Virus record (IMG/VR): IMGVR_UViG_3300009873_000018
Location: 2,034-66,033 of that record
Length of the DNA: 64,000 nucleotides
DNA from: a virus
Taxonomy: Duplodnaviria; Caudoviricetes
Reading direction: 5' to 3' (one strand)
Made by a program: the position numbers and the translations under genes. Every line of letters starts with the position of its first letter. Position 1 is the first letter of the stretch. Positions 2,600 to 28,082 of this stretch are shown here, in pieces. The notes beneath the pieces were generated by a model. That model searched no databases. It was not told where the DNA came from and was given only the letters and a program-made list of their open reading frames with translations.

Positions 2600-2788
2600 A
2601 TGAGCGACACGATCACGTGCGGCACGTGCGGCTTCGTCCGTGCGAACGTCGGGCGGGTCGTCCCCTGCCCGCGCTGCCACGGCATCCCCGCGCTCTGGGA
2701 CGTGCTCCGGCGTCTCGAGGCGCTCGAGGCCGACCTCGCGCGGGTCGAGCGCGCGCTCGCCGCGTCGCCGGGGCGCCGCGCCCGATGA
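2600..2788 (+). CDS. small zinc-finger protein
   Basis: CGTC...CPRC plus short coiled coil; ATGA coupling to next ORF. Confidence 0.65.
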   Translation: MSDTITCGTCGFVRANVGRVVPCPRCHGIPALWDVLRRLEALEADLARVERALAASPGRRAR

Positions 2789-2997
2789 GCGAGCACCACG
2801 TCCTCACCCGCTGGGCCGTGTGCCTCGACCGCGGCATCCTGTTCCGCCCGACGCAGCTCGTCCAGGTCGCGGGGGCGACCGAGGGCAGCATCGTCGGGTA
2901 CACGCTCGCGCGGCGGTCGTACGCGAGCGCCCGGGTGATGACGCTCGACCACGACTCGTCGCTGGTGCTCGACGCGCTCTTCAGGAGGCACGAGTGA
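2785..2997 (+). CDS. hypothetical protein
   Basis: [10 protein letters not shown]...; translationally coupled on both sides. Confidence 0.6.
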
Positions 2998-3776
2998 TCT
3001 GCTACCTCGCCGGCCCGATGGACGGGTATCCGGACCACAACTTCCCGGCGTTCGACGCCGCGGCGCGGCGCCTCCGCGACCGCGGGTTCTCGGTCATCAG
3101 CCCGGCCGAGATCACCCGGAGCATGTGGCGCGTGGGCCTCCCGGCGGCGTCGACCGCGCGGGGCGACGACGAGATGCGCGCCGCGTTCGCGCGCCGGTTC
3201 CCCGACGAGGCCGAGCGGCGCGCGAAGTACCTCCGCGCGGACGTCTCCGCGCTCCTCTCGTGCGACGCCGTCGTCCTCCTGCCGGGATGGAGCAGCAGCC
3301 GGGGGGCGACGCTCGAGCTGCTCGTCGCCGTGCAGACCGGGCGCCTCGTCTACGTCGACGCGGGGGGCGATCTGCTCCCGCTCCGCTTCACCCCCGACCT
3401 GGTCGCCCGGTGGCACTTCCTCGCCGAGAGCGGTCGCGCTTCTCCTCCGTCCGGACCCGTCGCCCCCGTGCCGCCGGTCCCTTCCGAGGAGGAGGCGCCG
3501 CTCTCCGTCTGCCGGGAGGCCGACGCCGCGGTGCGCGGCCCGCGGCAGCAGGCGTACGGCGGCCCGCGCGAGAACTTCGAGCGGATCGCCGGCCTCTGGC
3601 GCGAGTACCTCGGCAAGAAGTTCCTCTCGAGCTGCGACCTCGGCCCCGACGACGTCGCGTCGATGATGATCCTCCTGAAGCTCGCGCGCCTGATGAACGG
3701 CTACCACCGCGACTCGGTCGTCGACGTCGCCGGCTACGCCGCGTGCTGGGAGCTGCTGTCGGAAGAGAAGCCATGA
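2994..3776 (+). CDS. DUF4406 (nucleoside deoxyribosyltransferase-like fold) fused to DUF6378-like domain
   Basis: N-term [17 protein letters not shown]...[19 protein letters not shown]; C-term [15 protein letters not shown]...KLAR...[11 protein letters not shown]; AGGAGG before GTG 2994. Confidence 0.75.
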
Positions 3777-6217: not shown

Positions 6218-6399
6218 GCTTCAACCGCATCTACGGCTCTTGCGTCTGGGCCCTGGACGACGAAGGCACCTACCATACGTCGTGCGGGGAGGTGTTCTGG
6301 CTCGAGGACGGGACGCCCGAAGAGAACGGATGCCGATTCTGCCATCACTGCGGCGCCCGGCTCGTCGTGGTTGAGCTCGAGGAGGACGAAGAGGAATGA
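6214..6399 (+). CDS. small zinc-ribbon protein
   Basis: CVW...TSCG...CRFCHHCG, acidic tail. Confidence 0.65.
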   Translation: MSFNRIYGSCVWALDDEGTYHTSCGEVFWLEDGTPEENGCRFCHHCGARLVVVELEEDEEE

Positions 6400-7322
6400 T
6401 CGCCGTCCTCGGAGACCCGATGCTCGACGAGTGGGTCGAGCTCGAGCGTACCCGGGCGAACCCCGAAGCGCCGAGCACGCCAGTCGTCCGCCGCGCGCGG
6501 AAGACCGTGCAGCCTGGCGGCGCCCTGAACCTCGCCGCGAACCTCGTGCGCGCCACGAACAGGCTGGTGCACTTCATCCCGTCCTGGCACTGGGCGAACG
6601 CGGCTGTCTGCGGGCTGATGACGGACTACCGCGTGATGGTCGCCGCGCAGGACTTCTTAGGTAGCGGCGTCACGCACAAGCGGCGCGTGCTGCTCGACGG
6701 CACGCTGCTCTATCGCGAGGACAGGGACGTGCGGCCCGACCCGAGCCGGGTCGCCGACGAGCGGGAGATCGCGCAGCGGCTTGCCTTCGACGCGCCGGAG
6801 ATGATCGTGGTCAACGACTACGATAAGGGCAGCATCACCGTCCCCGTCGCGCGCGCCGCCGTCGCGAGGTCGCAAAAGGCCGCCCTGTCGTGGTGCGTCC
6901 TCGACGTCAAGCCGCGGCTCGCCTTCGCGCTGGGGCAGGAGGGCTTCAGTCCCTACCGGCTCATCGTGAAGATGAACGAAGCCGAAGCCGCCATGATCGT
7001 CGGCAAGCAGCCGAGCGCGACGGCGCTGCGCGCCGCCGTCGGCACCGACTGGGCCGTCGTCACGCGCGGCGCGGAAGGCGCGTCGTTCGCCGGGCCGCGC
7101 TTCACCAGCGAGGCGTTCGTGACGCCGGGTCCGCGCCTCGTCGAGGCGGCACGCCGCGGGTCGATCGCGGGGGCGGGGGACGTGTTCACCGCGCTCCTCT
7201 GCGCCGCGCTCCTGAGCGGCGACCCGATGCACGACGCCGTGCTGCACGCGGTGACCGGGACGACGGACCTGATCGCGCGCTGTCGTCAGACGCTCCTCTT
7301 GCCGCCGTGCGCGCCCCGCTGA
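6396..7322 (+). CDS. hldE: HldE/RfaE-type heptose-7-phosphate kinase domain (PfkB family)
   Basis: VLGDPMLD...PEAP..PVV...GGALNLAANL, DYDKG, DVKP and GAGD match RfaE domain I; no adenylyltransferase domain. Confidence 0.75.
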   Translation: MIAVLGDPMLDEWVELERTRANPEAPSTPVVRRARKTVQPGGALNLAANLVRATNRLVHFIPSWHWANAAVCGLMTDYRVMVAAQDFLGSGVTHKRRVLLDGTLLYREDRDVRPDPSRVADEREIAQRLAFDAPEMIVVNDYDKGSITVPVARAAVARSQKAALSWCVLDVKPRLAFALGQEGFSPYRLIVKMNEAEAAMIVGKQPSATALRAAVGTDWAVVTRGAEGASFAGPRFTSEAFVTPGPRLVEAARRGSIAGAGDVFTALLCAALLSGDPMHDAVLHAVTGTTDLIARCRQTLLLPPCAPR

Positions 7323-7723
7323 CGGCGCGGCAGGAGCAGGTCGTCGCGCAGCTCTACGAGCGTCACGGATGGAGCTGCGGGCAGATCGCGGAGGTGCTCG
7401 GCGTCGGGCGCCGGCTCGTCGAGAACGTCCTGCACCGGCGCGGCGTGGCCCTGACGCACCGGGGACGATGGCGCCGGCAGCCGACGCCGGGGGTGCGCGC
7501 CGCGCGGGAGTGGTTCGCGGCGGCGGCGCGGCCGGAGCAGGCCGACGACGTGAAGGTAGAACAGCAGGAGTGGGGCGGCGCATACCGCAGACGGCGCTGC
7601 CCGTCGTGCGAGCTCCTGACCGCGTACGTACACCGCTGCCCGCGCTGCGGGCACGACTTCGACGCGAACGTGCGGGCCGACCGCGACGTCGAGCAGACCT
7701 ACGACGAGGAGACGCACCGATGA
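7307..7723 (+). CDS. HTH plus zinc-ribbon protein
   Basis: GWSCGQIAEVLGVGRRLVENVL (HTH); CPSC...CPRC. Confidence 0.6.
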   Translation: MRAPLTARQEQVVAQLYERHGWSCGQIAEVLGVGRRLVENVLHRRGVALTHRGRWRRQPTPGVRAAREWFAAAARPEQADDVKVEQQEWGGAYRRRRCPSCELLTAYVHRCPRCGHDFDANVRADRDVEQTYDEETHR

Positions 7724-8526
7724 CCGAACCCGCACCCGAGCAGCCGAACCCGTTCGTCCTCGTCGAGGACTGCCGGTACGGCCGGTTCCTCGTGCCGCCG
7801 ACCGACAAGTACGTCGGGCAGGCGCTGATGAAGTACGGCGAGTACTCGCAGGTCGAGCTCGACCTCGTGCTCCAGCTGTTCCCGAAGGGCGGGCGCGTCG
7901 TCGTCGCGGGGGCGAACATCGGGGCGTTCATCCCGGCGCTCGCGCAGAAGGCCGGCGAGGTCGTCGCGTTCGAGCCGCAGCGCTGGGTGTACCAGCTGAT
8001 GGTGGCGAACGCGGCGCTCAACGGGCACATCAACGTGCGCCCGTATTGGGCCGGCCTCGGCACGCAGGCGCGCTACGCGTCGATCCCGGTGCTCGACCCG
8101 TGGCGCCAGAACAACTTCGGGGCGTTCGAGCTCGCGATGGGCGAGGGCATCGAGGGCGGCGAGCCGGTGCCGGTGTACCGGCTGGACAAGATGCCGAACA
8201 TGGACATGCAGCTCCTCACCATCGACGTCGAGGGGATGGAGCTCGACGTGCTCCAGGGCGCCGAGGCGACGATCGAGCGGAACCGGCCGGTCATCTTCTT
8301 CGAGGCCGACCGGAAGCTGAAGAACCCGGCCGTGTTCGCGTGGCTGCGCGGGCGGAACTACGACCTGCACTGGCACCGGACGCCGCTGTACAACCCGAAC
8401 AACTGGCGCAAGGACGAAGAGAACGTATACATGATCGACGGCGCCATCGTCGTCGCGGAGAACGTCATCGCGACGGCGAAGGAGCGGAACATCACCCTGG
8501 CGGGCTTCGTGCCGGTGCTCGACTGA
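7720..8526 (+). CDS. FkbM family methyltransferase
   Basis: YGEYS...GANIG...AFEPQ...IDVEGMELDVLQGA..TI.R.RPVIFFE. Confidence 0.9.
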   Translation: MTEPAPEQPNPFVLVEDCRYGRFLVPPTDKYVGQALMKYGEYSQVELDLVLQLFPKGGRVVVAGANIGAFIPALAQKAGEVVAFEPQRWVYQLMVANAALNGHINVRPYWAGLGTQARYASIPVLDPWRQNNFGAFELAMGEGIEGGEPVPVYRLDKMPNMDMQLLTIDVEGMELDVLQGAEATIERNRPVIFFEADRKLKNPAVFAWLRGRNYDLHWHRTPLYNPNNWRKDEENVYMIDGAIVVAENVIATAKERNITLAGFVPVLD

Positions 8527-8797: not shown

Positions 8798-9255
8798 GCG
8801 CACTCGTCACCGAGGTCTGGCCGGGCGTCGTGGTCGGCAGCGGTCGGGTCGAGCGCCCGCGCGACGTGATGCGCGACTTCAGTCTCGACGTGGCGTTCAT
8901 CCTGTCGCGGTCGACGTTCGACGACCTGTGGTACGGCGTGCCGGGCGCGATCCCGCTCTTCATCGACGACGGCCGGCCGCACTCGCACGGCGAGATCGCG
9001 CGGCTGATCAGGGCCTTGTCCATGCATGAGAGCGAAGGACTCCGCGTCGGCTTCTTCTGCTTCGCCGGGGTCAACCGGTCGGCGGCAGCCGCGTGCCTCT
9101 GGCGCTGGTGGTGCACCGGGCAGCACCCCGGCGAGGCTGCCAAAGAGCTGCTGAAGCTTCGGCCGCAGAGCTTTCAGTACCGGTGGTGGCTCGACCTGCT
9201 CGCGACGTGGTACGACCCGATGGTGCGCGGCGACGCTGCGGGGACGAGCGCGTGA
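8794..9255 (+). CDS. dual-specificity/tyrosine phosphatase-like protein
   Basis: P-loop FCFAGVNRSAA (CX5R) with upstream IDD acid loop. Confidence 0.8.
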   Translation: MSALVTEVWPGVVVGSGRVERPRDVMRDFSLDVAFILSRSTFDDLWYGVPGAIPLFIDDGRPHSHGEIARLIRALSMHESEGLRVGFFCFAGVNRSAAAACLWRWWCTGQHPGEAAKELLKLRPQSFQYRWWLDLLATWYDPMVRGDAAGTSA

Positions 9256-9917
9256 GCCTCAAGCTGAGCGACCACCCGACCTACAACCTGCTCGCGCGCG
9301 TCGCCGAGTACGAGAAGGCATGCCGGTGGCTCAGGGACAACATGCATCTGCCGGAAGCCGTCGCCGCCGTGTACGCGGCGGTGTTCGAGGGCGGCGGCAC
9401 GCTCTGGTTCGCCGGCAACGGCGGGTCGGCGGCGGACGCGCAGCACTGCGCGGCGGAGTACGTCGGCCGGTTCCTGCTCGACGGACGCCAGCCGCTCAAC
9501 GCGGGGGCGCTCACGGTGGACACGAGCGTGCTCACGGCGATCGGCAACGACTTCGGCTTCGACAAGGTGTTCGCGCGGCAGGCCGCGGCGCGCGTGCGGG
9601 AGAACGACGGCGTGGTGGTGCACTCGACGTCCGGCGCGAGCGAGAACGTCGCGCAGCTCCTCGCCTGGGCGAAAGCCTGCCGGCCGACGGTCCCGCGCGT
9701 CGCCCTGCTCGGACCGCGCCACCGCTGCCAGCAGACGCAGGTCGCCGAGCTGGCGAACGTGGTCGTGTTCGCCGAGGTCGACGGGCCGGCCGTCCAGATG
9801 GCGCACATGATGTTCCAGCACCTCGTCGCCGAGATCGTCGACTACTGGGTCGTGAACAAGTTCCGGAGGCAGAAGGCCGCCGTGCCGGCCCTGAAGCACG
9901 CGGAGTACCCGCCGTGA
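9252..9917 (+). CDS. gmhA: sedoheptulose-7-phosphate isomerase (phosphoheptose isomerase)
   Basis: AGNGGSAADAQHCAAE, TSVLTAIGNDFGFDKVFARQ, STSGASENV, VQMAH. Confidence 0.9.
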   Translation: MSLKLSDHPTYNLLARVAEYEKACRWLRDNMHLPEAVAAVYAAVFEGGGTLWFAGNGGSAADAQHCAAEYVGRFLLDGRQPLNAGALTVDTSVLTAIGNDFGFDKVFARQAAARVRENDGVVVHSTSGASENVAQLLAWAKACRPTVPRVALLGPRHRCQQTQVAELANVVVFAEVDGPAVQMAHMMFQHLVAEIVDYWVVNKFRRQKAAVPALKHAEYPP

Positions 9918-15437: not shown

Positions 15438-16415
15438 ATGTCACACGAGATCACCAGCACCGACGGGATCGCCTACCGCCTCAGCGAAGGCGACCCGTGG
15501 CACGGGCTCGGCGTCGGCCTCCCCGACGACGCGACGCTCGAGGACTACGCGGAAGGCGCCGGGCTCCGGTGGCGGATCAAGACCGCCCCGGTCTTCGCGA
15601 CGCTCGACGACGGGACGCACGTCGACGTCCCGCGGAAGGTGATGTACCGGAGCGACACGAAGCAGGTGCTCGACGTGATCGGCCCGGAGTACGTCCCGGC
15701 GCAGCCGGACGAGGTGCTCGAGTTCTTCCGCGACTACCTCGCGAGCGGCGACATGACGATGACGACCGTCGGCAGCCTGAAGGCCGGCCGGTACGTCTGG
15801 GCGCAGGCGAACCTGCGGAAGGGCTTCACGCTCGCGGGCGGCGACACCGTCGACGGGCGGCTCCTGATCGCGAACCCGAACCAATACGGCCGCGGGCTCA
15901 TCGTCAAGCTCGTGATGACCCGCGTGGTGTGCGCCAACACGATCCGGTTCGCCCTGACCGAGAACGGGCGGCAGATCGTCCTGGCGCACAACAGGACGTT
16001 CGACAAGGAAGCGCGCGACGACGCCGCGCGTCGCTTCGGCCTCGCGGCCGACGCGTTCGAGAACCTGAAGCACGAAGCCGAGGCCTTCGCCGCCACGCGG
16101 ATCGCCGACGAGGCGGACGTGACGCGGGTGCTCGCCGCGACGTGGAAGGTCCCGCTCACCGAGGACGGCGAGGTCCTGATGCGGAAGAGCCGCCAGGTGA
16201 AGCGCTGCCGCGAGCTGTACGACGGCGCGGGGATCGGCGCGTCGCTGCCGTCGGCGGCGGGGACGGCGTGGGGGCTGCTCAACGCCGTCACGCAGTACGT
16301 CGATCACGAGATGGGGCGCGGGCAGGAGGCGGACCGCGCCGCCGCGAGCATGTTCGGCGACGGCGATAAGATCAAGGGCCGTGCGCGGAAGGCGCTCTGG
16401 CAACTCGTGAAGTAG
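15438..16415 (+). CDS. DUF932 family protein (TIGR03299-like)
   Basis: PWHGLG, Y.P.Q..E, GSLKAGRYVW, RVVCANT, GTAWGLLNAVTQYVDH. Confidence 0.9.
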   Translation: MSHEITSTDGIAYRLSEGDPWHGLGVGLPDDATLEDYAEGAGLRWRIKTAPVFATLDDGTHVDVPRKVMYRSDTKQVLDVIGPEYVPAQPDEVLEFFRDYLASGDMTMTTVGSLKAGRYVWAQANLRKGFTLAGGDTVDGRLLIANPNQYGRGLIVKLVMTRVVCANTIRFALTENGRQIVLAHNRTFDKEARDDAARRFGLAADAFENLKHEAEAFAATRIADEADVTRVLAATWKVPLTEDGEVLMRKSRQVKRCRELYDGAGIGASLPSAAGTAWGLLNAVTQYVDHEMGRGQEADRAAASMFGDGDKIKGRARKALWQLVK

Positions 16416-18552: not shown

Positions 18553-18798
18553 TCAGGTCGAAGTCCGAGTGCCTGCATCCCGCAGTTGAGCCGCCCATGC
18601 TTTTTGTTCCTCCCGGTGTGAGACGACCGCCCTCGCCAGGTACCGCCACAGCTTTTCCCAGACGTCGTGCCCGGACGCGTCCTTCAACCGCACGAGCCGC
18701 CAGACCTTCCCGTCGATCCGGAACACGGCCCAACGGCCGCGGACCTCGGCCGTAGCGACCTCGCGGCCGTCTTCGGAGACGACGAGCCTGGTGCTCAT
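18553..18798 (-). CDS. hypothetical protein
   Basis: MSTRLVVSEDG...; ATGA overlap with GT9 gene. Confidence 0.55.
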   Translation of the reverse strand: MSTRLVVSEDGREVATAEVRGRWAVFRIDGKVWRLVRLKDASGHDVWEKLWRYLARAVVSHREEQKAWAAQLRDAGTRTST

Positions 18799-20327
18799 CC
18801 CCCGTATCGGTCGAGCAGCAGCGACCGCGCCCGGTCGAGCGGGGTCGCCCAGTCGGCGCAGTGATCCTGACGGACGAGCTGCATCCGCGAGTACCACGGC
18901 GTGCGGTCGCCCTCGAGCCCCCAGCGCCAGTCGGGGGCCGCCGGGATCAGGGTAACGATGTCGGGGCCGTCGACCGCGGCGCCGGCCGCGTGGATCGTCG
19001 CCGTGTCGACGCAGAGCATCAGGTCCATCTGCGTCGCGGCGTGAAGCGTGTGGCCGAACGTCTTGATGGCCGGCGTCAGGTCGACGAGGTTCGGCGGCGT
19101 CCCGTCGTCGACGTCGCGCGCCCGGTCGCCGACCTGAAACGAGTAGAAGACGATGTTCTTGCCGGCCACGTCCGGGTGCGCGAGGACCGCGTCGCGGAAC
19201 TGCGGCCAGAGGATCGACCTGTAGCGGTCGTTCTTGTGTGCCTTCGAGCCGGCCCACGAGATGCCGACCCGGAGCGCGTTCGGCCCGAGGCCGTTCGGGT
19301 CGGGCGGCAGCGCGACGAGCTGGTCGGCGACCGGCCGAAGCCATCCCGCTCCGCCGTACGGGATGCGCGTGTGCTCGAGCTTCACGAAGCCGGTCTGACG
19401 CAGGATGCTCATCATCGGCAGGTAGTAGTCAATCTTCCCGCCGCATTCTTCCGGGATCGGGGTGTTGCTCGCGATCACGTAGTCGACGCCCCTGACCTGG
19501 GCGAGCAGGTCGACGAGCGTGTCGCCGACCTCGAGGACGATCATCCCCGCCTGGCTGCGCTCGTGCACCCGCTCGAGGAACCGGCTGAACATGATCACGT
19601 CGCCCGCGCCCTGCTCGGTGTGGACGTAGAGCGTCCTGCCGGGGATCGGCTTGCCGTTCCAGTGCTTCGCCTTCCCGAAGTTCCGTCGGTTCTCGGCGAG
19701 GAACGCGCCGGTCTTCCAGCGGAAGTCGTAGTCGGCGAGCCCGCCGATGTAGTCGCCGAGCGTCAGCTTCGCGAACCCCCGCGAGTATCGCGAGTCGAGG
19801 CTCGGCGTCTCGGTCTTGCACGCGTTGATGAGCCACCGGCGCCCACGCACGCGGTCGCCTTCGTTCAGGTACGCGCCGCCGAGCGAGACCTTCGCCTCGA
19901 TCAGGGAGTCGAGCATCGCCGCCGCGTAGAGAAACCGCTCCTTCGCTTCGGTCTCTTTCCCCATCCGGTGGAGCAGGATGCCGAGGTTGTAGTGTGCCTC
20001 GGGCACGTTCGGCATCGCCTCGATCGCTTTCTCCATGATCGCGAGGACCTTCGCCTCCTCGCCGTTCTGCTGCGACAGCGCGATCCCGGCGAAGTAGAGG
20101 CACTTCTTGTTGTCCGGGTCGTGCAGCAGGACTTCGCGGTAGATCTCCATGGCGTCCTTCGTCAGGCCGCGCTGGTGCAGGTCGATCCCCTGCTTGAGCA
20201 TCGACTCGAGCTCGGCCGGAGGATACTTTCGGACGGTCGGGAACGCGATCTTTCCGACGAACTGCGACGCGTCGAGCTCCTCGAGCTCGAAGTGCCCCTG
20301 GACGAGGCGCGGGTTGAGTTCGCTCAT
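18795..20327 (-). CDS. TPR-repeat glycosyltransferase family 9 (heptosyltransferase-like) protein
   Basis: N-terminal TPRs; W.GKPIPGRTLYVHTEQGAGD..MFSRF; VGISWAG; DLMLCVDTATIHAAGA; WRWG...TPWY. Confidence 0.88.
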   Translation of the reverse strand: MSELNPRLVQGHFELEELDASQFVGKIAFPTVRKYPPAELESMLKQGIDLHQRGLTKDAMEIYREVLLHDPDNKKCLYFAGIALSQQNGEEAKVLAIMEKAIEAMPNVPEAHYNLGILLHRMGKETEAKERFLYAAAMLDSLIEAKVSLGGAYLNEGDRVRGRRWLINACKTETPSLDSRYSRGFAKLTLGDYIGGLADYDFRWKTGAFLAENRRNFGKAKHWNGKPIPGRTLYVHTEQGAGDVIMFSRFLERVHERSQAGMIVLEVGDTLVDLLAQVRGVDYVIASNTPIPEECGGKIDYYLPMMSILRQTGFVKLEHTRIPYGGAGWLRPVADQLVALPPDPNGLGPNALRVGISWAGSKAHKNDRYRSILWPQFRDAVLAHPDVAGKNIVFYSFQVGDRARDVDDGTPPNLVDLTPAIKTFGHTLHAATQMDLMLCVDTATIHAAGAAVDGPDIVTLIPAAPDWRWGLEGDRTPWYSRMQLVRQDHCADWATPLDRARSLLLDRYGG

Positions 20328-20797
20328 AGAGGATGCCCGTCGAACGGTTCGACCTCGGAGACCTCGATGTTCATAGCCCGTGCGTACTCGCGGACTCGGA
20401 CGAAGGCAGCACCCCAGCGGGCGAGTTGGTCATGCGTTGCCCGCGGCGCGACGAACCGCGTGAGGCCGGCCTGCGACATCTGCACGAAGCAACGGTCGCA
20501 GCTCAGGAACGGCCACGTGTAGAGCGTGTAGCCTACGACGGGCTCTCGGGCCGTGATGAGCGCGTTGATCTCGCAGTGGATGATCCGCGAGTACTTCTCC
20601 TCGCGGTCGGCATAGTGCTCGTCCGTGTCGGGCATCTTGCGTGGGAACCCGTTGTATCCTACCGAGACGACGGTGCGGTCGGGACGGACGATCACCGCCC
20701 CGGTCTTCGTGCTCGGGTCTTTCGACCACGACGCGACGAGCCCCGCGAGCTGGAGAAACCGACGGTCCCATCGGTAACGTCGTTCATCTTCGATCAT
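20324..20797 (-). CDS. dCMP deaminase
   Basis: WSKDPSTKTGAVI, GYNGFP, HCEINA, SCDRC. Confidence 0.92.
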   Translation of the reverse strand: MIEDERRYRWDRRFLQLAGLVASWSKDPSTKTGAVIVRPDRTVVSVGYNGFPRKMPDTDEHYADREEKYSRIIHCEINALITAREPVVGYTLYTWPFLSCDRCFVQMSQAGLTRFVAPRATHDQLARWGAAFVRVREYARAMNIEVSEVEPFDGHPL

Positions 20798-22677
20798 TCG
20801 GTCGCTCCCCAGTTAGGGCCGAACTTCGCCTCGGCGATCACGGGTACTCGCATCACGGTGCCGTCCCACGCCGGACGCTTGCCTGCATCCTGCATGATCT
20901 CGACGATCTCCCGCATCGCCCGGTCGCCGGCTTCGCCGTGCGGGACCGAGAAGTCGAGCTCGTCGTGCACGGTCAGGTGCAGCTGCACGTCCTCGGAGTC
21001 CACGTACCCTGCCCGGTCGATGTCGACCATCGCGATCTTGATCAGGTCCGCGGCGCTCCCCTGCAGCAGCCGGTTGAGCGCCGTGTACGACTTGTAATAT
21101 CGGTCCGGGTGCCGCGGCTGAACACCGTAACGTAACGCGGCGACGCCTTCCGTGATCAGCCTGTTGCGTCGACCGCCCCACGTGATCACCTTGCCTTTTC
21201 GTTCGGCCTGCGACGTGACGGCCCGCATGAGCTGTTCGGCTTCCGGGATGTGCCGGTCGTAGGCGGCGACGAACTCGGCGGCCTCGGCGACCGTGCACCC
21301 TGCGGTCTCGGCGATCTTCCCGATCCCGCCGCCGTAGAGCCGGCAGAAGTTCACGTTCTTCGCTTTCCGGCGCTCGATGCCCGCGGTCTCGGCGACCCAC
21401 TGGTGAAAGTCGATGCGCGGGTCGGCGACGTAAGCCTGCTCCATCGCGCTCGTCGTGCCGCGGTGCCGCGCGAGCACGCCGGCATAGTGCGCGAAGTACC
21501 GGTACTCGATCTGCGAGTAGTCGACCTTCAGCCAGCGCTGGTCGTCCCGCATCGGGCGGAAGAGCCCGCGGATCAGGGGCGCCCATACCTTATCGCGCGC
21601 CGGGACGTTCTGGAGGTTCAGCGGTCCCGAGCTCGAGAACCGTCCGCTGCGCTTCGCGCCGAACGCGTTGAACTCGCCGTGGATGACGTCGCCGTCCCCG
21701 CAGTTATCCAGCACGTAGCCCCGCACGAACGTGTCGCGATAGTGCTCGAGCTGCCGCATCTGCCTGACGCGGTCGCCGATCGGGTGGTCGAGGTTCTCGA
21801 GCCATTCCTTCGTGATCGACGGTTTCTTCGTCTTCTCGGTCAGCGGATACACGATCCCGGCCGCGTCGAGTATCGGCTTGAGGTCGTCCGCGCTCCGGTA
21901 GTTCGCGTCGCCGTAGTCCGCGCGCCACTTACCGACGAGCACCTCGAGCTGCCGCGTGAGGTCGTCGACGACCGCCTCGGCGCGGGCGATGTCGGCCCGC
22001 ACGCCGGTCAGGTGCATCTTCAGGAGGACGGGGAGCAGGGCCGTCTCGAGGTCGTAGACGTAGTCGAAGCTCCCGTCGGCGTCGCCTTTCCGGACGAGCG
22101 GACGGAGCGCGTCGTAGGCGCCGATCGTCAGGACGGCGTCGTGCGCGGCGTACTCGCGCATCTCGGACACGGGCACGCGCCAGTAGTGCGGCGCGAGCGC
22201 CCGGCGCGTCGGCTTCAGACGGCGGCACTCGGGGATGTTCGCGACCATCCACGCATGGAGCGCATCGTCTGCTTTGACGCCGAGGCCGAGCCCCTGCGCG
22301 ACGTCGTTGAGCGTGAAGCTCGTGCGGTTCTCGTCGAGGAGCGTCGCGGCGATCATCGTGTCGGCGACGTTGTCGACCGCGATGCCCACGTAGGCGAGCA
22401 TCCGCATGTCGAACGGGGCGTTGTGCGCGACGCGGAGCTGCGTGCCGCCCCGGAGCTGCCCCCGCGCCCAGGCTTGGACGTCGGCGAGCGCGACGTTGTT
22501 CATCGCGGCCGGACCGCGGATGCCTTTCGGGTCGCCGGCCCCCCACGAGAAGTACCATGACTGCCCGTCCGGAGCCGCAAGGCTTAAGCCGACCGGACGA
22601 TCGTTCCATGTCAGGCCGGTCGTCTCCGTGTCGAAGGCGATCCGGTCGTAGCGACGGAGGTCAGGAAGCTCGGGCAA
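20794..22677 (-). CDS. polA: DNA polymerase family A with 3'-5' exonuclease
   Basis: FDTETTGL, HNAPFD, YAAHDA; DYSQIEYR, KNVNF..LYG, TVHDEL. Confidence 0.96.
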   Translation of the reverse strand: MPELPDLRRYDRIAFDTETTGLTWNDRPVGLSLAAPDGQSWYFSWGAGDPKGIRGPAAMNNVALADVQAWARGQLRGGTQLRVAHNAPFDMRMLAYVGIAVDNVADTMIAATLLDENRTSFTLNDVAQGLGLGVKADDALHAWMVANIPECRRLKPTRRALAPHYWRVPVSEMREYAAHDAVLTIGAYDALRPLVRKGDADGSFDYVYDLETALLPVLLKMHLTGVRADIARAEAVVDDLTRQLEVLVGKWRADYGDANYRSADDLKPILDAAGIVYPLTEKTKKPSITKEWLENLDHPIGDRVRQMRQLEHYRDTFVRGYVLDNCGDGDVIHGEFNAFGAKRSGRFSSSGPLNLQNVPARDKVWAPLIRGLFRPMRDDQRWLKVDYSQIEYRYFAHYAGVLARHRGTTSAMEQAYVADPRIDFHQWVAETAGIERRKAKNVNFCRLYGGGIGKIAETAGCTVAEAAEFVAAYDRHIPEAEQLMRAVTSQAERKGKVITWGGRRNRLITEGVAALRYGVQPRHPDRYYKSYTALNRLLQGSAADLIKIAMVDIDRAGYVDSEDVQLHLTVHDELDFSVPHGEAGDRAMREIVEIMQDAGKRPAWDGTVMRVPVIAEAKFGPNWGATE

Positions 22678-22936
22678 ACGAGTGTTCTCTCAGGCGCGGT
22701 CGAAGCCGACGGAACGCCCCCGGATAGATCGACCGGGCCCAGTCCCAATTGAAGTCTTTCTTGACATCGTCGAGACGCGAGTAAGTGCGCGATCGCCGGA
22801 ACGCTTCGAGGATCGGCACCACGCTCGTGTTCGGCATCACGACGTAGCGGCGTTCTCCGCTCCCGAGCCTGATGCGGTAGAGCACGCAGCCCTCGTCGCG
22901 GATGACCTGTTCTAGCGAACGCGCGTCTCTCTTCAC
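22661..22936 (-). CDS. hypothetical protein
   Basis: 91-aa ORF between TS-like gene and polA. Confidence 0.5.
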   Translation of the reverse strand: MKRDARSLEQVIRDEGCVLYRIRLGSGERRYVVMPNTSVVPILEAFRRSRTYSRLDDVKKDFNWDWARSIYPGAFRRLRPRLREHSFARAS

Positions 22937-23808
22937 GGAACGAGCTTCTTGAAGAACGGCATGAGCTGGTAGTCCTTGTTGAACCTGTGCGCGATCAGCG
23001 CGGCGTATTCATCGTTCGCCGGGATCGCGGCGATGCCGCCCAGCGCGCACGTGGACGTGAACTTACTCAGGATCGCCGCCTGCTGCAGGCTGACCGCTGG
23101 AGATTCTTCGGGCTGCGGGACAGCGCCGTCGCGATATGCGTCGACGAGCGCCCGAGCGACGGCACGGTCGCGCTCGTAGAGGTGCAGGCTCCCGACATGG
23201 TGCACGTAGAAGCCGGGTATGACGCCGAGCTCGCAAGCGAGAGTACGTTGAATCTGAGTGAAGTTGAAGATGTCGTACGGCAGGCCGAGCCACGCGTCGT
23301 TGCTGCGCATGTTCACGTGCAGGTCGAGCTCACCGTCGCGGACGAACGCCTGCAGCGTGAGCGTGCACGGGACGTCCTTCGTCGGCACGGTGAGAGACTC
23401 AGGGCGCCACGGCGACAGCACCCCCTGCCGGGTGTCGGGGTCTCGCCGGAGAAGGTTGATGACCGAGTAGATGTCGCGCACGACCCGCGGGCCGTACGCG
23501 CCGAAGAACGTGGCCCCGTCGTCGCTGAAGTCCGCGATCCGCTTGTTGTACGGCGCGATCGACGCGACGTCGTCTCGGCCGCCGATCACCCAGAGCCACT
23601 CGGCGACCATGAAGTAGTAGTTGAGCTTCCGTTCCGGCAGGGTGACGACGTTTCTCGTCGGGTCCTCGAGCACGAGCGTGCGGGCGAGCATCTCGCGGCA
23701 GGGCTGCCCGCGCGGCGCGACTTCGCAGTAGTCGGCGTCGTCGTTGGTGAGCTCTTCGAGGACGTCGATGTACAGCGCGTTGGCGTCATCGTGCCGTGTC
23801 GTATACAT
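22933..23808 (-). CDS. thymidylate synthase-like enzyme, predicted dCMP hydroxymethylase/methylase type
   Basis: DVPCT catalytic Cys; MRSNDAWLGLPYD with Asp at the E. coli TS Asn177 position; SLHLY. Confidence 0.8.
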   Translation of the reverse strand: MYTTRHDDANALYIDVLEELTNDDADYCEVAPRGQPCREMLARTLVLEDPTRNVVTLPERKLNYYFMVAEWLWVIGGRDDVASIAPYNKRIADFSDDGATFFGAYGPRVVRDIYSVINLLRRDPDTRQGVLSPWRPESLTVPTKDVPCTLTLQAFVRDGELDLHVNMRSNDAWLGLPYDIFNFTQIQRTLACELGVIPGFYVHHVGSLHLYERDRAVARALVDAYRDGAVPQPEESPAVSLQQAAILSKFTSTCALGGIAAIPANDEYAALIAHRFNKDYQLMPFFKKLVP

Positions 23809-24319
23809 AGTCCATCACCCTTGCGATCCTGCTGTGGAGGTCTCCGTAGCTCATCGTGACGTAGTCGAACCAGACGACCGGCGTCCGGAGCCGATAGATC
23901 GACGCATACGACGAGTAGAAATCATACATCTCGTGAAACTGCTTGGCCTCGACGAGTAGTTCTTTCCCTTCGTCGACGCGCTTCTGCCAGGCGGCTTGGC
24001 ACACGTCCCGGGACGGTATGCACAGGACGATGACGCCCTGTTGCTCGAACATGTAGTCGTCGAAGAGCCGGTGCACCTCGCCCCTGAAGACGTCGGGACG
24101 CCCCATGAACTTGTGGTAGATCTGCTCGCTCGGCCACGAGCGGTCGACCGCCGTGTCGTCCGGCTGCCCGCGCCGGAGTCCCTCGAATTGCCAGACGACG
24201 CGCTCGAGCTGCGTCGCGCCTTCCGGCGGTCCGTTGTGCACGTACGTGAAGTGCGGAAACGCTCTCTTCGCGGTCTGCGTCTTCCCCCCGCCGTCTGGTC
24301 CCTCGAGAAGGATGATCAC
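23786..24319 (-). CDS. deoxynucleoside monophosphate kinase (thymidylate kinase-like)
   Basis: ILLEGPDGGGKT P-loop; DRSWPSEQIY. Confidence 0.8.
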   Translation of the reverse strand: MIILLEGPDGGGKTQTAKRAFPHFTYVHNGPPEGATQLERVVWQFEGLRRGQPDDTAVDRSWPSEQIYHKFMGRPDVFRGEVHRLFDDYMFEQQGVIVLCIPSRDVCQAAWQKRVDEGKELLVEAKQFHEMYDFYSSYASIYRLRTPVVWFDYVTMSYGDLHSRIARVMDYVYDTAR

Positions 24320-24849
24320 GGGTTCCGCACCTCGCCGGTGCCGCTCGCCCCGATCATGACACGGCCTCGCTGTACCTTGGAATCGATGATCCCGGCGACG
24401 TTCGGTGGCCGCCAGCCTTCGGGCTTCTTCACGTCGAGCTTGTTCAGGCGCCTGCTATCCTCGCGCGACGCGACGAGCTCCTTCTCCATGTTCGCGCGGT
24501 GAACTTCCTCGAAGATCTCGTCGTGCGGGAGGCCCATCGACGCGCTCGTGCCGTGCAGGAAGTACTCGAGGTCGACGAGGCTGTCGGCGGCCCCCGTCAG
24601 GTCGCCGTGCGCGTGCGCGTGCACGAACTCGGCGAGTTCTTCGACCATCATCTGCACCCGGCCCCAGAACACGTCGTCGTTTCCCCGACGCACCTGGATG
24701 TACATCTGGACGAGGTCCAGCAGCTCGGTGACTGCGTTCGGCTCGCCGGGACCGATGTCGGCGACCAGCAGGGCGGGCTCGCGCGACTGCGGGATGCGGA
24801 ACTTGTCTTGGAACTCGCGGACGAGCTCGTGGTTGCTGCGCAGGCTCAT
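24316..24849 (-). CDS. MazG-like (PRA-PH/DR2231-type) nucleotide pyrophosphohydrolase
   Basis: VREFQ..F, MVEELAEF, ADSLVDLEY, FEEVHRANMEK, KPEGWRPP. Confidence 0.88.
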   Translation of the reverse strand: MSLRSNHELVREFQDKFRIPQSREPALLVADIGPGEPNAVTELLDLVQMYIQVRRGNDDVFWGRVQMMVEELAEFVHAHAHGDLTGAADSLVDLEYFLHGTSASMGLPHDEIFEEVHRANMEKELVASREDSRRLNKLDVKKPEGWRPPNVAGIIDSKVQRGRVMIGASGTGEVRNP

Positions 24850-25256
24850 CTGAACGTCTCCTTCATGAAATCGTTGATCACCAGGCGGTTGGCAGGACTG
24901 TTGTACCACCGCGTCCTGCCGCTCGGGTGCGGGACGACGACGTACCGACCGGTCCACGCAAGGAACGGGACGGTGCTGCTAAGGCCGAACGCACGTGCTA
25001 CCTCTCGTCCTAGGAGGATGAATCGTGCGTCGGGATACTCCGCGACGAGCTTCGTTGCTTGAGCTCGGGCGATGATGCGGTTTTCGGGCGTCCACGGCCG
25101 GGGCGTCGGGACCGCGAAGACGTTGCGGAACGCGACCGGCGTGCGCCCAACGCAGTGCGTGACCCACTCGGTCACGCGGCGCCCGGTGCAGGACGTCGGA
25201 CCCATCGGGGGGTTGTTGTCCGTCCGGCTCGGCGCTTCTCCGACGAAGACGATCAT
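24846..25256 (-). CDS. uracil-DNA glycosylase superfamily protein (minimal)
   Basis: IVFVGEAP, ILLGREVA, PHPSGR..WYN. Confidence 0.75.
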   Translation of the reverse strand: MIVFVGEAPSRTDNNPPMGPTSCTGRRVTEWVTHCVGRTPVAFRNVFAVPTPRPWTPENRIIARAQATKLVAEYPDARFILLGREVARAFGLSSTVPFLAWTGRYVVVPHPSGRTRWYNSPANRLVINDFMKETFR

Positions 25257-26485
25257 GCCCCGAGCCCCCGCAGCAGGTCGCGCGCGACGCGCTCGGGCGC
25301 GTGAAAGTTCTGGACCTCCTCGTATTGTCCGTCGGCGATCTCCTGCAGCCGATATGCCGAGAGCTCGACGAGCCCGCGCACCGTCTCGACGACCGACTTC
25401 AGCTCGTCGGGGTCGACGCTCGAGCGGACGCCGCCGTCCTTCCTGGTGTCGACCGTCCCGTCCGTGTAGGCAAACGTCGACACGCGCGTATAGCCGCCTG
25501 CCTGCGCGATCTGGTGTTCCGGCATCGCGACGACGCGTCCCGCGTGCACCGCGTCGAGCGCGGCGTACTCCATCGTGCCGCCGAGCGACGTGTTCGTCAT
25601 GAACACCCCGACGGCGGGTGTCCAGTCGACGTCGGCGATCTCGTCGGGGCTCCCGTGGTACCACACCGACCGGCCGCCGGGCGTGCGCATCTTCGTCTCG
25701 CCGGTGTAGAACTTCTTCGCGTTCGGGTGAGTGAGGTCCGGCTTGCTCACGCGCGGGTGGATCTCTTCAGAATACCCGAGCGCGAGCCCGAGCTCGTAGA
25801 GCTTCCACACCGCGGACGGGAGCCCGAACCCGTTGTAGCCCCAGACGTGGAGGTCGGCGCCGACCGCGTCGGCCGACGACCAGAGCACGGCCTGTCCCTT
25901 GTTTGACGTCACGCGACCGAGCGTGAGCACGGCCGGCCGGTCCTGGCGCGGGATCGGCGTGCGCTCGACGAGCGGGTGGTAGGGCAAGTATGGGTCGATG
26001 AGCCAGTCGATCTTTCGCGGGCTCAGCGGGTCGATGCGGGGCGGCGTCGTCCGCCAGCGCGTGACCTGCAGCTTGCCGGTCCACGACCGAGACGCGAGCG
26101 ACGCGCGGATCACGTCGTCCTCGTCGGACGGGTAGATGTGGTCGTGCACGAGCGTCGTCCACGGCGTGCGCATCCGCCGCACGACGTCGACGTAGTACGG
26201 GAGCCCGTCGACGAGCCCGCTCTTGTGCAGCCCCGGCTGCCGGCAGACGATGTCCGCGAAGATCACGAGGTCGTACTCATCGAGGACGGCGACGGCGTCC
26301 CGCACGCGGTCGACCATCCAGGGGTGCGGCTTCCGGGGGTGCCACGCGTTGATCCACCGGCCGGACCGCGAGAACGTCCGGAGGTCGGCCGCGTGGCCGA
26401 GCGCCTCGAGCCCCGGCCGCAGGTGCTCGAGCCATGTCGTCGGGCCGCAGATGCGCGGGGCCCACTCGACGAGCGCGATCTTCAT
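25253..26485 (-). CDS. GT-B fold glycosyltransferase, candidate DNA glycosyltransferase
   Basis: Real start MKIALVEW at 26485; LTLGRVTSNKG and GTMEYAALDAVHAG resemble GT-B donor-binding motifs. Confidence 0.65.
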   Translation of the reverse strand: MKIALVEWAPRICGPTTWLEHLRPGLEALGHAADLRTFSRSGRWINAWHPRKPHPWMVDRVRDAVAVLDEYDLVIFADIVCRQPGLHKSGLVDGLPYYVDVVRRMRTPWTTLVHDHIYPSDEDDVIRASLASRSWTGKLQVTRWRTTPPRIDPLSPRKIDWLIDPYLPYHPLVERTPIPRQDRPAVLTLGRVTSNKGQAVLWSSADAVGADLHVWGYNGFGLPSAVWKLYELGLALGYSEEIHPRVSKPDLTHPNAKKFYTGETKMRTPGGRSVWYHGSPDEIADVDWTPAVGVFMTNTSLGGTMEYAALDAVHAGRVVAMPEHQIAQAGGYTRVSTFAYTDGTVDTRKDGGVRSSVDPDELKSVVETVRGLVELSAYRLQEIADGQYEEVQNFHAPERVARDLLRGLGA

Positions 26486-27606
26486 GCGATGACCTTTCGC
26501 CATTCGGGCGAGGCGGTCCCGATCAGGTTCTTCTCGAGGTCGACGAGCTTCGGGTCGAGCGACGAGACCGGGACGTCTTCGCGTATCCCGCGCGCGACGT
26601 TCCGCGCGAGCCACTCGCCGACCGGCGGCATCACCGCCTGCGCCGTCTGCGCGTACTTGTCGCTGAGGTTCGGCCCTTCGAACTCGTACGTGAGCGGGTA
26701 GCCGCAGAGGACCTGCTGCTCGAGGAGCGTGATGTACCTGTGCTCCGTGGGGTGGTACTTCGTCGCTCCTCCGGTCAGCGTCGGGCTCGGCTTCGTCGGG
26801 TCGAGGCGGACGTCGAGGAACCGCGGCCGCCCCCGCACGCCGCCGTGCGCGTTGCGCTCCCACGTCTCCGGGGGATGCTCTTGCTCCCACATCCGCCGGA
26901 GCGAGTCGCCGGGCTCCATCCGGCGGAGCAGGTCCATGTACACCGGGTTGCTCTGCGGCGGGGGCGGCGGTGACCGGTCTTCCTTGATCGTGGCGAAGGC
27001 GTCGCCTACCGTCACGTAGTCCCTCGGGTCGCGGCGAGCGTATTCCCAGTCGAGCTCGACGCGAGTGAAGACGCAGAAGAATCGTCGTCGGATCTGCGGG
27101 ACGCCGAGGTCGACGGCGTTCAGGAGGACGTAGTTCGCCTGGTAGCCCATCCGTGCGGCTTCCGCGGTCAGCATATCGACCATCTCGCGTCCACGCCGGA
27201 GCGCCGGCTGCACCGACTCCCACGCCCACACCTTCGGGGGCCGGCCGACCTCGTTCATCTTCACGAGCACGTCGAACATCTTCGTGATGCACGACGTCCT
27301 GGGGTCGCGCTTCCAGTGCGTGTTCATCATCCCGACCTTCTTCGAGCTGATGCCGCCGTTCGAGAACGGGGCGCAGGGCGGGTTGCCGTAGATGAAGTCG
27401 ACGTGCCCCTGGAGCGCGATCGCCTTCGACGGCCAGGTGGCAGGCTCGGTGTAGACCGGGAGGCCGGGGTGGTTCCGCTTCGTCGTCGCGACGCCGTACG
27501 GGCCGTCTTCGAACTGCGCCAACACCCGGAAGCCGGCGCGCTTGACCCCGAGAGTAAACCCGCCCGCGAAGATGTAGACCCCGAGCGCTGTCAGATCGTA
27601 GGTCAC
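26482..27606 (-). CDS. DNA cytosine-C5 methyltransferase-like protein
   Basis: GNPPCAPFS (IV), WESV (VI), QIRRR (VIII), RYITLLE (IX); variant motifs I and X. Confidence 0.85.
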   Translation of the reverse strand: MTYDLTALGVYIFAGGFTLGVKRAGFRVLAQFEDGPYGVATTKRNHPGLPVYTEPATWPSKAIALQGHVDFIYGNPPCAPFSNGGISSKKVGMMNTHWKRDPRTSCITKMFDVLVKMNEVGRPPKVWAWESVQPALRRGREMVDMLTAEAARMGYQANYVLLNAVDLGVPQIRRRFFCVFTRVELDWEYARRDPRDYVTVGDAFATIKEDRSPPPPPQSNPVYMDLLRRMEPGDSLRRMWEQEHPPETWERNAHGGVRGRPRFLDVRLDPTKPSPTLTGGATKYHPTEHRYITLLEQQVLCGYPLTYEFEGPNLSDKYAQTAQAVMPPVGEWLARNVARGIREDVPVSSLDPKLVDLEKNLIGTASPEWRKVIA

Positions 27607-28082
27607 GACTTCTTCCTCTTCGTCCACGGAAGCTTTCCGGCGTTCCGGAGGCAACCGCGAACGTCGGCGATGCCGAACACATAGGCCTTCTCGGGGAACT
27701 TCAGGTGGACGGCCTCGAGCAGGGCCTGCTCGTCGGTGATGCCGTCGTCGATCAGGGAGCGGCAGAAAGGTCGCAGGCCGGCGCGCTTCGGGGCGGCTGA
27801 GTCGGCCTGCGGGGCGGCGACAGGATCGTCGTTCATCGGTGCACCTTGTAGGAGTGTGTTGAAGCGAGAACTGACCGGCGAGGGTACGGGACGACCGTGA
27901 TGGTCGTACCACTCGATCTGGAGCCGATACTGCACGATGAGCACGGAGGTGACGTAGTCGGTCGGCCGGCCGAGCACGCTCGCGGCGGCCTTACGGACGA
28001 CGGCGGGGTCGACCTCGTCGATGATGATCGTCGACAGCAGGTCCGGCTTAAGCGTGAGTCCATGCTCCTCTAACCAGCTCAT
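27603..28082 (-). CDS. hypothetical protein
   Basis: GAAAGG RBS; GTGA overlap with C5-MTase. Confidence 0.65.
   Translation of the reverse strand: MSWLEEHGLTLKPDLLSTIIIDEVDPAVVRKAAASVLGRPTDYVTSVLIVQYRLQIEWYDHHGRPVPSPVSSRFNTLLQGAPMNDDPVAAPQADSAAPKRAGLRPFCRSLIDDGITDEQALLEAVHLKFPEKAYVFGIADVRGCLRNAGKLPWTKRKKS

Follow-up and report, generated by a model that had tools for sequence, protein, structure and literature searches.

Gene content of the locus

The DNA analyzed here, a stretch of 64,000 nucleotides (hereafter the window), carries on its minus strand, at positions 22933–27606, a cassette of six genes which, in the order of transcription, code for a C5-cytosine DNA methyltransferase-like (C5-MTase-like) protein, a GT-B glycosyltransferase (GT), a small protein with the fold of uracil-DNA glycosylases (UDG), a MazG-like pyrophosphohydrolase, a P-loop kinase and a homolog of thymidylate synthase (TS). 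Judged from its sequence, the operon to which the cassette belongs probably serves to replace cytosine by 5-hydroxymethylcytosine (5hmC) before replication, with glycosylation of the DNA to follow. The window makes up most of its source record, a 66-kb virus contig of IMG/VR with about 67% GC that is about 80% complete. Consecutive genes of the cassette overlap by 4 bp, except for the kinase and TS genes, which share 23 bp; the MTase gene starts with the GTG at 27606, inside a GTGA overlap with the gene upstream. Open reading frames (ORFs) and searches of Pfam, PHROG and NCBIfam bore out the original prediction, made from the letters of the window, as to the six genes, their order and position and the presence downstream of genes for a family A DNA polymerase (PolA) and a deoxycytidine monophosphate (dCMP) deaminase. 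The genes of the cassette are:

26482–27606, minus strand: C5-cytosine DNA methyltransferase-like protein, 374 amino acids (aa) (PF00145, E-value 1.7e-25)
25253–26485, minus strand: GT-B glycosyltransferase, 410 aa, a predicted DNA (5hmC) glycosyltransferase (AlphaFold model with a mean confidence, pLDDT, of 95.3)
24846–25256, minus strand: small family-4-like UDG-fold protein, 136 aa (PF03167, E-value 1.2e-6)
24316–24849, minus strand: MazG-like all-alpha nucleoside triphosphate (NTP) pyrophosphohydrolase, 177 aa (PF01503, E-value 3.3e-13; phrog_671, E-value 7e-22)
23786–24319, minus strand: P-loop nucleotide kinase, 177 aa (phrog_761 'thymidylate kinase', E-value 1.1e-8)
22933–23808, minus strand: predicted TS-family pyrimidine hydroxymethylase, 291 aa (PF00303, E-value 1.8e-20)

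Between 18.8 and 34 kb every gene lies on the minus strand and most overlap a neighbor by 4 bp. Directly downstream of the TS homolog come a 91-aa ORF, PolA and the dCMP deaminase, followed by a protein of 510 aa with tetratricopeptide repeats (TPR). The genes that flank the cassette are:

27603–28082, minus strand: 159-aa protein without a family match, upstream of the MTase, with a counterpart in the metagenomic locus L009
22661–22936, minus strand: 91-aa ORF between the TS homolog and PolA, overlapping both neighbors
20794–22677, minus strand: PolA, with 3'-5' exonuclease and Pol I motifs in the ORF translation
20324–20797, minus strand: dCMP deaminase, 157 aa (PF00383, E-value 2.6e-13; phrog_174, E-value 1.5e-39)
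18795–20327, minus strand: TPR protein, 510 aa, with TPR matches in Pfam and a C-terminal GT9-like domain; last gene of the operon

Searches of Pfam and PHROG gave no match for the 91-aa ORF or the 159-aa protein. The latter is 44% identical over 111 aa to the protein encoded directly before the MTase of L009 (tblastn), and the order 159-aa protein, MTase, GT is common to the window and L009. PolA, which is predicted to incorporate the modified deoxynucleotide, is matched by the PolA of two further loci, L007 and L008 (tblastn). The structural module is siphovirus-like, with a lambda-V-like major tail protein, a tape measure protein, a J-like central fiber, a major head protein and a portal, and no tail sheath was found in the structural module of the window. 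Together with the GC content and the family A polymerase, this upholds the earlier description of the virus as a GC-rich PolA siphophage.

The thymidylate synthase homolog and the predicted nucleotide-pool enzymes

Residues that distinguish the activities of TS-family enzymes have been described in work on 5-hydroxycytosine phages (PMC13326640, 2026). In the numbering of E. coli ThyA, replacement of Asn177 by Asp switches the substrate from deoxyuridine monophosphate (dUMP) to dCMP, replacement of Leu143 by Asp or Glu accompanies a hydroxymethyl instead of a methyl product, and replacement of Asp169 by Asn is a mark of 5-hydroxy-dCMP synthases (PMC13326640). We aligned the TS homolog of the window with T4 gp42, SPO1 gp29 and three phage relatives. 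At positions 143, 146, 166, 168, 169 and 177 the window protein and T4 gp42 both read DCRNDD, and SPO1 gp29 reads DCRNDN. The final Asp of the motif RSNDAWLGLPYD aligns with E. coli Asn177 and with T4 gp42 Asp179, which confirms the assignment made when the cassette was first noticed. Residues D145 (inside TKDVPC), C148 and D179 of the window protein correspond to E. coli positions 143, 146 and 177; the catalytic Cys of the TS fold is thus present, as Cys148, aligned with E. coli C146. Asp171 (within RSND) corresponds to position 169, and an Asp is found there in all 120 of the nearest homologs retrieved from a collection of 5.8 billion proteins, as are D143, C146, R166 and D177. Under the published rules, Asp177, Asp143 and Asp169, uniform across the 120 homologs, support the earlier proposal that the substrate is dCMP and the product carries a hydroxymethyl group, and the TS homolog is predicted to be a dCMP hydroxymethylase.

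Three other activities were considered for the TS homolog and set aside: a 5-hydroxy-dCMP synthase of the RB69 gp48 type, given Asp and not Asn at 169; a canonical ThyA, given Asp at both 143 and 177 and scores for the NCBIfam TS equivalogs far under the cut-offs (65 bits vs 327); and, on its signature, a dUMP hydroxymethylase, given Asp and not Asn at 177. The best relative of solved structure is MilA, a CMP 5-hydroxymethylase that shares Asp177 (E-value 1.1e-34; about 1e-16 for true TS entries). Over the whole sequence the protein is most similar to SPO1 gp29 (33% identity over 263 aa, E-value 6e-39), with T4 gp42 behind (32% over 105 aa, E-value 7e-12). The window enzyme would thus work like gp42 without being its close relative or ortholog, and belongs to the hydroxymethylase clade of SPO1 gp29 and MilA, in which the base is set by one residue. 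The labels given to two relatives, 'thymidylate synthase' in Stenotrophomonas phage AXL3 and 'deoxyuridylate hydroxymethyltransferase' in Pseudoxanthomonas phage PW916, are probably wrong.

The kinase, with the P-loop GPDGGGKT, and the UDG-like protein are separate genes in the window, with the MazG gene in between, and both are found as halves of a single protein elsewhere. The kinase of the metagenomic locus L011 is a 317-aa fusion of a P-loop kinase with a UDG-superfamily domain; AXL3 gp29 and a protein of L008 align with it end to end, and a search for the fusion family turned up 97 clusters. The window kinase matches the N-terminal domain of the fusion (hhalign probability 99.8%, E-value 2.6e-29) and the window UDG-like protein the C-terminal domain (E-value 6.8e-5, its GE and HP motifs aligning with those of the domain). 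A sequence search found no relative of either window protein among solved structures. In a model of the fusion (pLDDT 95), the kinase half is closest to B. subtilis BSU20280 (YorR; Z 17.7), with thymidylate kinases at Z 13–14, and the UDG half to the family-4 UDG of T. maritima (Z 14.0, root-mean-square deviation (rmsd) 2.4, 133 residues aligned); against the UDG domain of the PolA of phage phiLo the UDG half gives Z 11.9. The gene for a deoxynucleoside monophosphate (dNMP) kinase that the original prediction placed in the cassette is therefore accounted for by a P-loop monophosphate kinase fold, the match to phrog_761 and the Tmk/YorR-like model of the fusion domain; its substrate is a prediction, namely 5-hydroxymethyl-dCMP. 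In a few clusters (P0198, P0204) relatives of the kinase are fused to MazG (PF01503) instead of to a UDG-like domain, and these few fusions fit a nucleotide-pool role for the kinase, in preference to that of a 5-HMUDK-type DNA kinase as in the thymidine-hypermodifying phages ViI and M6.

The UDG-like protein has the motifs GEAPS (motif A) and HPS (motif B), falls short of family-4 UDGs by about 55 residues and contains two Cys, too few for a 4Fe-4S cluster; its gene adjoins the GT gene also in loci L012 and L013. The UDG domain of phiLo PolA works as an active uracil glycosylase and, in phages with modified thymine, scans the template in advance of the fork (PMC13697223), and by this precedent the most economical reading of the UDG-like gene is a predicted role in uracil removal at the fork.

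The solved protein nearest to the MazG-like enzyme is DR2231 (E-value 1.6e-11), a dUTP-specific enzyme, and the similarity to T4 gp56 is marginal (E-value 0.01 over 30 residues, BLASTP). Thus, of the idea that MazG clears dCTP and dUTP, the presence of a MazG-like NTP pyrophosphohydrolase in the cassette stands, and dCTP removal is a prediction; the protein is predicted to be a pyrophosphatase for dCTP and/or dUTP. The MazG gene lies beside the kinase and TS genes in L001, L003, L007, L008, L009 and L010. Elsewhere in the window (2640–3776, plus strand), a 378-aa protein with DUF4406, a domain of the nucleoside 2-deoxyribosyltransferase/Rcl-like group, and DUF6378 is possibly one more enzyme of the nucleotide pool.

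The cassette is found again in six metagenomic loci, with 55–71% GC. Four of them have the following gene orders:

L009: 159-aa-like protein without a family match, MTase, GT, MazG
L010: helicase, MTase, GT, MazG, kinase
L011: MTase, GT, kinase-UDG, TS, deaminase, PolA
L014: TS, MTase, GT

Synteny conserved in independent contigs shows that the cluster is not a chance arrangement. A dCMP deaminase gene follows the TS homolog also in L008, L011, the phages AXL3 and PW916, and ctUtU524. In AXL3 the order is the same: a MazG-like protein, a 327-aa 'thymidylate kinase' (the kinase-UDG fusion), a TS homolog with Asp177 and a dCMP deaminase. AXL3 DNA was not cut by 35 restriction enzymes with G or C in their sites, and was cut only by TasI and Tru1I, whose sites, AATT and TTAA, hold A and T only; the phage carries a separate ThyX (PMC7504290). 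This cut pattern is what global replacement of cytosine predicts, and so argues against a modification of thymine. A DUF932 protein is encoded in the window (15438–16415, plus strand) and in L011 (3458–4555); the annotation in ctUtU524 is 'phage/plasmid-like protein TIGR03299'.

The glycosyltransferase and its methyltransferase-like partner

The 410-aa GT had no match in Pfam, PHROG or NCBIfam. When 1.84 billion representatives were searched exhaustively with HMMER, relatives emerged in 121 clusters. With the peptide patterns used, neither IMG/VR nor the GTDB genome set gave a relative, and only a scan of metagenomes did. The AlphaFold model, built on an alignment of 44 of the 121 clusters (pLDDT 95.3), has a GT-B fold, on which Foldseek and VIA-align agree. 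The first five VIA ranks are all taken by T4 alpha-glucosyltransferase (AGT), including its complexes with DNA, which head the ranking at Z 27.6 with 348–350 residues aligned (all five ranks: Z 26.3–27.6, rmsd 3.2–3.5, 338–350 residues aligned), and GT4 enzymes lie within about 1 Z unit (HepE 26.3, BshA 25.6). R191, K196 and E306 are invariant in the 44 homologs and, by analogy with GT4 enzymes, may form the site for the nucleoside diphosphate (NDP)-sugar donor. The fold thus supports, short of proof, a DNA glycosyltransferase. Of the proposal that the base, once made, is glycosylated, the GT-B fold with T4 AGT as best match upholds the enzyme class, and the near-tie with GT4 enzymes leaves the acceptor a prediction.

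This GT family is associated with the MTase. Of ten long relatives of the GT that were run against Pfam, eight carry a fused C5-methylase domain (PF00145), either the GT or the methylase coming first, and the fused methylase domains are 34–41% identical to the window MTase over its full length (BLASTP). Two further fusions (P0021, P0028) were added by BLASTP, so that fusions are found in at least 10 clusters (P0005, P0006, P0009, P0010, P0016, P0018, P0021, P0022, P0027, P0028), on contigs of 4.7–112 kb from independent ENA, Logan and JGI assemblies; scans of IMG/VR with the P0005 and P0016 fusions as queries gave no match. In six of the fused proteins (P0009, P0016, P0018, P0021, P0027, P0028) 200–370 extra residues lie between the MTase and GT domains, a stretch with no match in Pfam and no usable match in the ESM Atlas. 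As separate genes, the MTase directly precedes the GT in the window, L009, L010, L011 and L014. The same MTase subfamily is present in the TS(D177) cassette of L008, in which tblastn detected no GT. Fusions and synteny together argue that the MTase belongs to the system, being genetically coupled to the GT, and is not a bystander.

In an alignment of 16 members of the MTase subfamily, the catalytic motifs PPC (IV), ESV (VI) and QxRxR (VIII; QIRRR) are invariant. The motif II Glu that binds the ribose of the cofactor is kept. On the cofactor side the subfamily departs from the canonical motifs: motif I is FAGGF and not FxGxG, the Gln of PCQ is replaced by Ala (PPCA) in 16 of 16 members, and A[QRK]AV stands where the GN of motif X would be. 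The Q82A and N304A variants of M.HhaI were reportedly engineered for a larger pocket that accepts bulkier transferable groups, and C5-MTases can derivatise 5hmC in vitro.

The MTase can be read in two ways. It may be an ordinary sequence-specific methylase acting on residual cytosine, which would imply that replacement is partial, and partial replacement would fit a MazG protein whose substrate may be dUTP and not dCTP. Alternatively, with 5hmC made as proposed, the MTase-like enzyme and the GT may form one machine with undescribed chemistry, the MTase-like protein being an obligate partner or fused domain of the AGT-like GT, with a remodelled cofactor pocket and its catalytic residues kept, that acts on 5hmC-containing DNA. 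Such an enzyme would attack C6 of a flipped cytosine or 5hmC and then either transfer a group larger than methyl, or activate 5hmC or present it for the fused or adjacent GT. The repeated fusions in both orders, the synteny, the presence of the subfamily in L008 and the combination of invariant catalytic Cys, Glu and Arg with non-canonical cofactor-side motifs all speak for a joint machine, as do the M.HhaI pocket variants and the derivatisation of 5hmC by C5-MTases. Fusion is, however, also common between enzymes that work side by side on one DNA, the motif II Glu would still permit ordinary binding of S-adenosylmethionine (SAM), and T4 AGT needs no partner to flip its base. We therefore put the joint machine forward tentatively, and regard both it and the role it gives to the MTase-like protein as unlikely. 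If true, the product would be an undescribed cytosine hypermodification or a glycosylation targeted to certain sequences, and the donor might be a heptose made by the phage.

The possible source of such a sugar lies in the plus-strand part of the window, where two genes correspond to the first two steps of nucleotide-heptose synthesis:

6396–7322, plus strand: PfkB-family kinase, most similar to RfaE domain I, a heptose-7-phosphate kinase (PF00294, E-value 6e-12; TIGR02198, E-value 2.6e-18)
9093–9917, plus strand: GmhA-like sedoheptulose-7-phosphate isomerase with a SIS domain (PF13580, E-value 5.6e-13; TIGR00441, E-value 1.6e-29)

These genes, on the same contig as the cassette, may supply the donor sugar for one or more GTs; a gene for an FkbM-family methyltransferase (7369–8526) lies between them. 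A gene cluster from a metagenomic phage has yielded heptosylated 5hmC (bioRxiv 10.1101/2023.12.21.572611), a precedent that makes heptosylated DNA a reasonable guess here, and not a result. The TPR protein at the end of the operon is possibly a second glycosyltransferase: its residues 195–510 are GT9-like, resembling heptosyltransferases, in the ESM Atlas (features 0.96, TM 0.86–0.87), and PF01075 (GT9) gave no match to it even at an E-value of 10.

The proposed pathway and its alternatives

The chemistry set out here is a prediction from what was directly seen, that is, gene content, residue signatures, folds, synteny and fusions. The MazG-like pyrophosphatase would convert dCTP and/or dUTP to the monophosphate, and the TS homolog would hydroxymethylate dCMP at C5, with methylene-tetrahydrofolate as the donor. 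The P-loop kinase would form the diphosphate and a host NDP kinase 5-hydroxymethyl-dCTP, which the phage PolA would incorporate. The dCMP deaminase would supply dUMP to the thymidylate synthase of the host; no match to a phage ThyX (PF02511) was found in the 66-kb record, which is about 80% complete. At the fork, the small UDG-fold protein would clear uracil-type bases, like the UDG domains of phage PolAs. After replication, the T4 AGT-like GT-B enzyme would move a sugar from an NDP-sugar to the hydroxyl of 5hmC; this sugar is possibly a heptose, for whose synthesis the phage would use its GmhA-like and RfaE-I-like enzymes, and the C5-MTase-like enzyme would act on the same DNA together with the GT.

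Several observations weigh against this pathway in part or in whole. The TS homolog is nearer overall to SPO1 gp29, a dUMP enzyme, than to gp42, so that the assignment to dCMP depends on few residues. The kinship of the MazG-like protein to DR2231 and its marginal similarity to gp56 make dCTP exclusion, and hence complete replacement, uncertain. DNA in which all cytosine is 5hmC would offer a C5-MTase no substrate, so that replacement would have to be partial or the enzyme to have another function. The lead of T4 AGT over GT4 enzymes in the structural comparison, about 1 Z unit, amounts to a tie, and the acceptor of the GT could be something other than DNA. The NCBIfam scores of both heptose genes (TIGR02198, TIGR00441) are under the curated cut-offs, and the genes lie 11–20 kb from the cassette, on the opposite strand.

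The same genes could also, in line with the annotation of AXL3, be taken for ordinary nucleotide salvage and repair, in which the TS homolog would make dTMP, the kinase would be a thymidylate kinase, MazG a dUTPase and the UDG-like protein a uracil repair enzyme, with the MTase serving as an anti-restriction 5-methylcytosine methylase and the GT modifying a target other than DNA. The names 'thymidylate synthase' and 'thymidylate kinase' in the databases, the likeness of MazG to DR2231 and a UDG fold close to that of active UDGs would all suit this reading. By the published rules (PMC13326640), however, Asp177 and Asp143 cannot be reconciled with a dUMP methylase, and the scores for the TS equivalogs fall as far short of their cut-offs as given above. 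AXL3, moreover, has a separate ThyX beside its TS homolog and DNA blocked at all sites that contain G or C, and the GT most resembles a glucosyltransferase of DNA and in relatives forms one protein with a DNA methylase. Salvage and repair is for these reasons a highly improbable account of the cassette. A modification of thymine, with 5-hydroxymethyl-dUMP made from dUMP or by deamination of 5-hydroxymethyl-dCMP and the resulting 5-hydroxymethyluracil glycosylated as in SP15-type phages, would accord with the overall similarity to the dUMP hydroxymethylase SPO1 gp29, the dCMP deaminase that is always adjacent and the UDG domains that accompany thymine-modified phages (PMC13697223), but deserves hardly any credence, as the Asn177 that marks dUMP enzymes is missing from the window protein and from 120 of 120 nearest homologs, AXL3 DNA is cut at AATT and TTAA and at no site containing G or C, and the PHROG matches of the kinase are all named thymidylate kinase (a comparison by PHROG names alone).

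Relation to known systems

Replacement of cytosine by 5hmC with later glycosylation, which we continue to regard as the probable function of the operon, is not new as a basic idea, since viral contigs with a GT-B enzyme, ThyS, a dCMP deaminase and methyltransferases have been surveyed as a class (bioRxiv 10.1101/2023.12.21.572611). A T4-like logic joined to a C5-MTase, which the original prediction had called unusual, is in view of that survey less so. GT-B/TS-homolog clusters and clusters with a methyltransferase, 5mYOX and a GT, with heptose among the sugars placed on 5hmC, were described by Pyle et al. (bioRxiv 10.1101/2023.12.21.572611) and Burke et al. (PNAS 2021). In the reconstituted clusters of these studies the C5-MTase feeds a TET-like dioxygenase, whereas in the window the predicted source of 5hmC is the nucleotide pool, so that the known role of the MTase falls away; a search for Tet_JBP (PF12851), run without a positive control, gave no match in the 66-kb record, itself about 80% complete. 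As far as our literature searches show, what is new is this GT family, its recurrent fusion to a distinct subfamily of C5-methylases, in a cassette apparently without TET, the kinase-UDG fusion and the link to the restriction resistance of AXL3; the word 'fusion' is absent from the text of bioRxiv 10.1101/2023.12.21.572611.

The two enzymes nearest to the TS homolog differ from it in different respects. MilA (PDB 5jnh, 5b6d) has Asp at 143 and 177 in common with the window enzyme but acts on a ribonucleotide in the pathway to the antibiotic mildiomycin, whereas the window enzyme sits in a phage context, with a kinase, PolA and dCMP deaminase, which points to dCMP rather than a ribonucleotide as its substrate. 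The dUMP hydroxymethylase gp29 of Bacillus phage SPO1, the closest characterized phage homolog over the full length, shares Asp143 and has Asn at 177 (uracil), where the window enzyme and its clade have Asp (cytosine). The UDG domains of the PolAs of SP15-like phages (phiLo, YerA41; PMC13697223) resemble the window UDG-like protein in having a family-4-like fold, with the Glu and His catalytic motifs, within the replication module of phages with modified pyrimidines; they are fused to the polymerase, whereas the window protein is a free protein of 136 aa, with homologs elsewhere fused to a nucleotide kinase.

AXL3 and PW916 share with the window a MazG-like gene, a TS homolog that has Asp177 and a dCMP deaminase, and carry a class I SAM-dependent methyltransferase (Methyltransf_23) where the window has the C5-MTase and GT. 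The cassette offers a testable explanation for the unexplained restriction resistance of AXL3. Among relatives without a GT, Methyltransf_23 proteins are encoded beside MazG in TS(D177) cassettes and may modify 5hmC further in phages of the AXL3 type; they were found at:

L003:4599–5423
L001:934–1758
L002:4793–5542
L008:6263–6985
L007:5177–6430

The 5hmC pathway of T4 consists of gp42, the dNMP kinase gp1, the dCTPase/dUTPase gp56, the dCMP deaminase cd and alpha- and beta-glucosyltransferases, and the same set of activities is predicted for the window. The two have in common the DCRNDD signature and the dCMP deaminase, and T4 AGT is, nearly tied with GT4 enzymes, the best structural match of the window GT; on sequence-derived grounds (residue signature, GT fold and cassette content) the T4-like logic first proposed for the cassette is therefore supported overall. 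The components are, however, not T4 orthologs: the TS homolog belongs with SPO1 gp29 and MilA, the kinase is Tmk/YorR-like and not detectably like gp1, and the pyrophosphatase is DR2231-like. The window also differs from T4 in its family A polymerase, siphovirus-like structural genes and 67% GC, and in two proteins that T4 lacks, the UDG-fold protein and the C5-MTase-like partner of the GT. The fusions of C5-MTase to GT and of nucleotide kinase to UDG point to a physical coupling that T4 biology does not predict; the former may hide new DNA chemistry or a way of aiming glycosylation at chosen sequences, and either, if true, would be of value for DNA-labelling enzymes and for insight into phage escape from restriction and CRISPR. 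The cassette would thus carry the strategy of T4, in which the modified nucleotide is made first and the sugar is added once the DNA is replicated, over to siphovirus-like phages that are GC-rich and have a family A polymerase.

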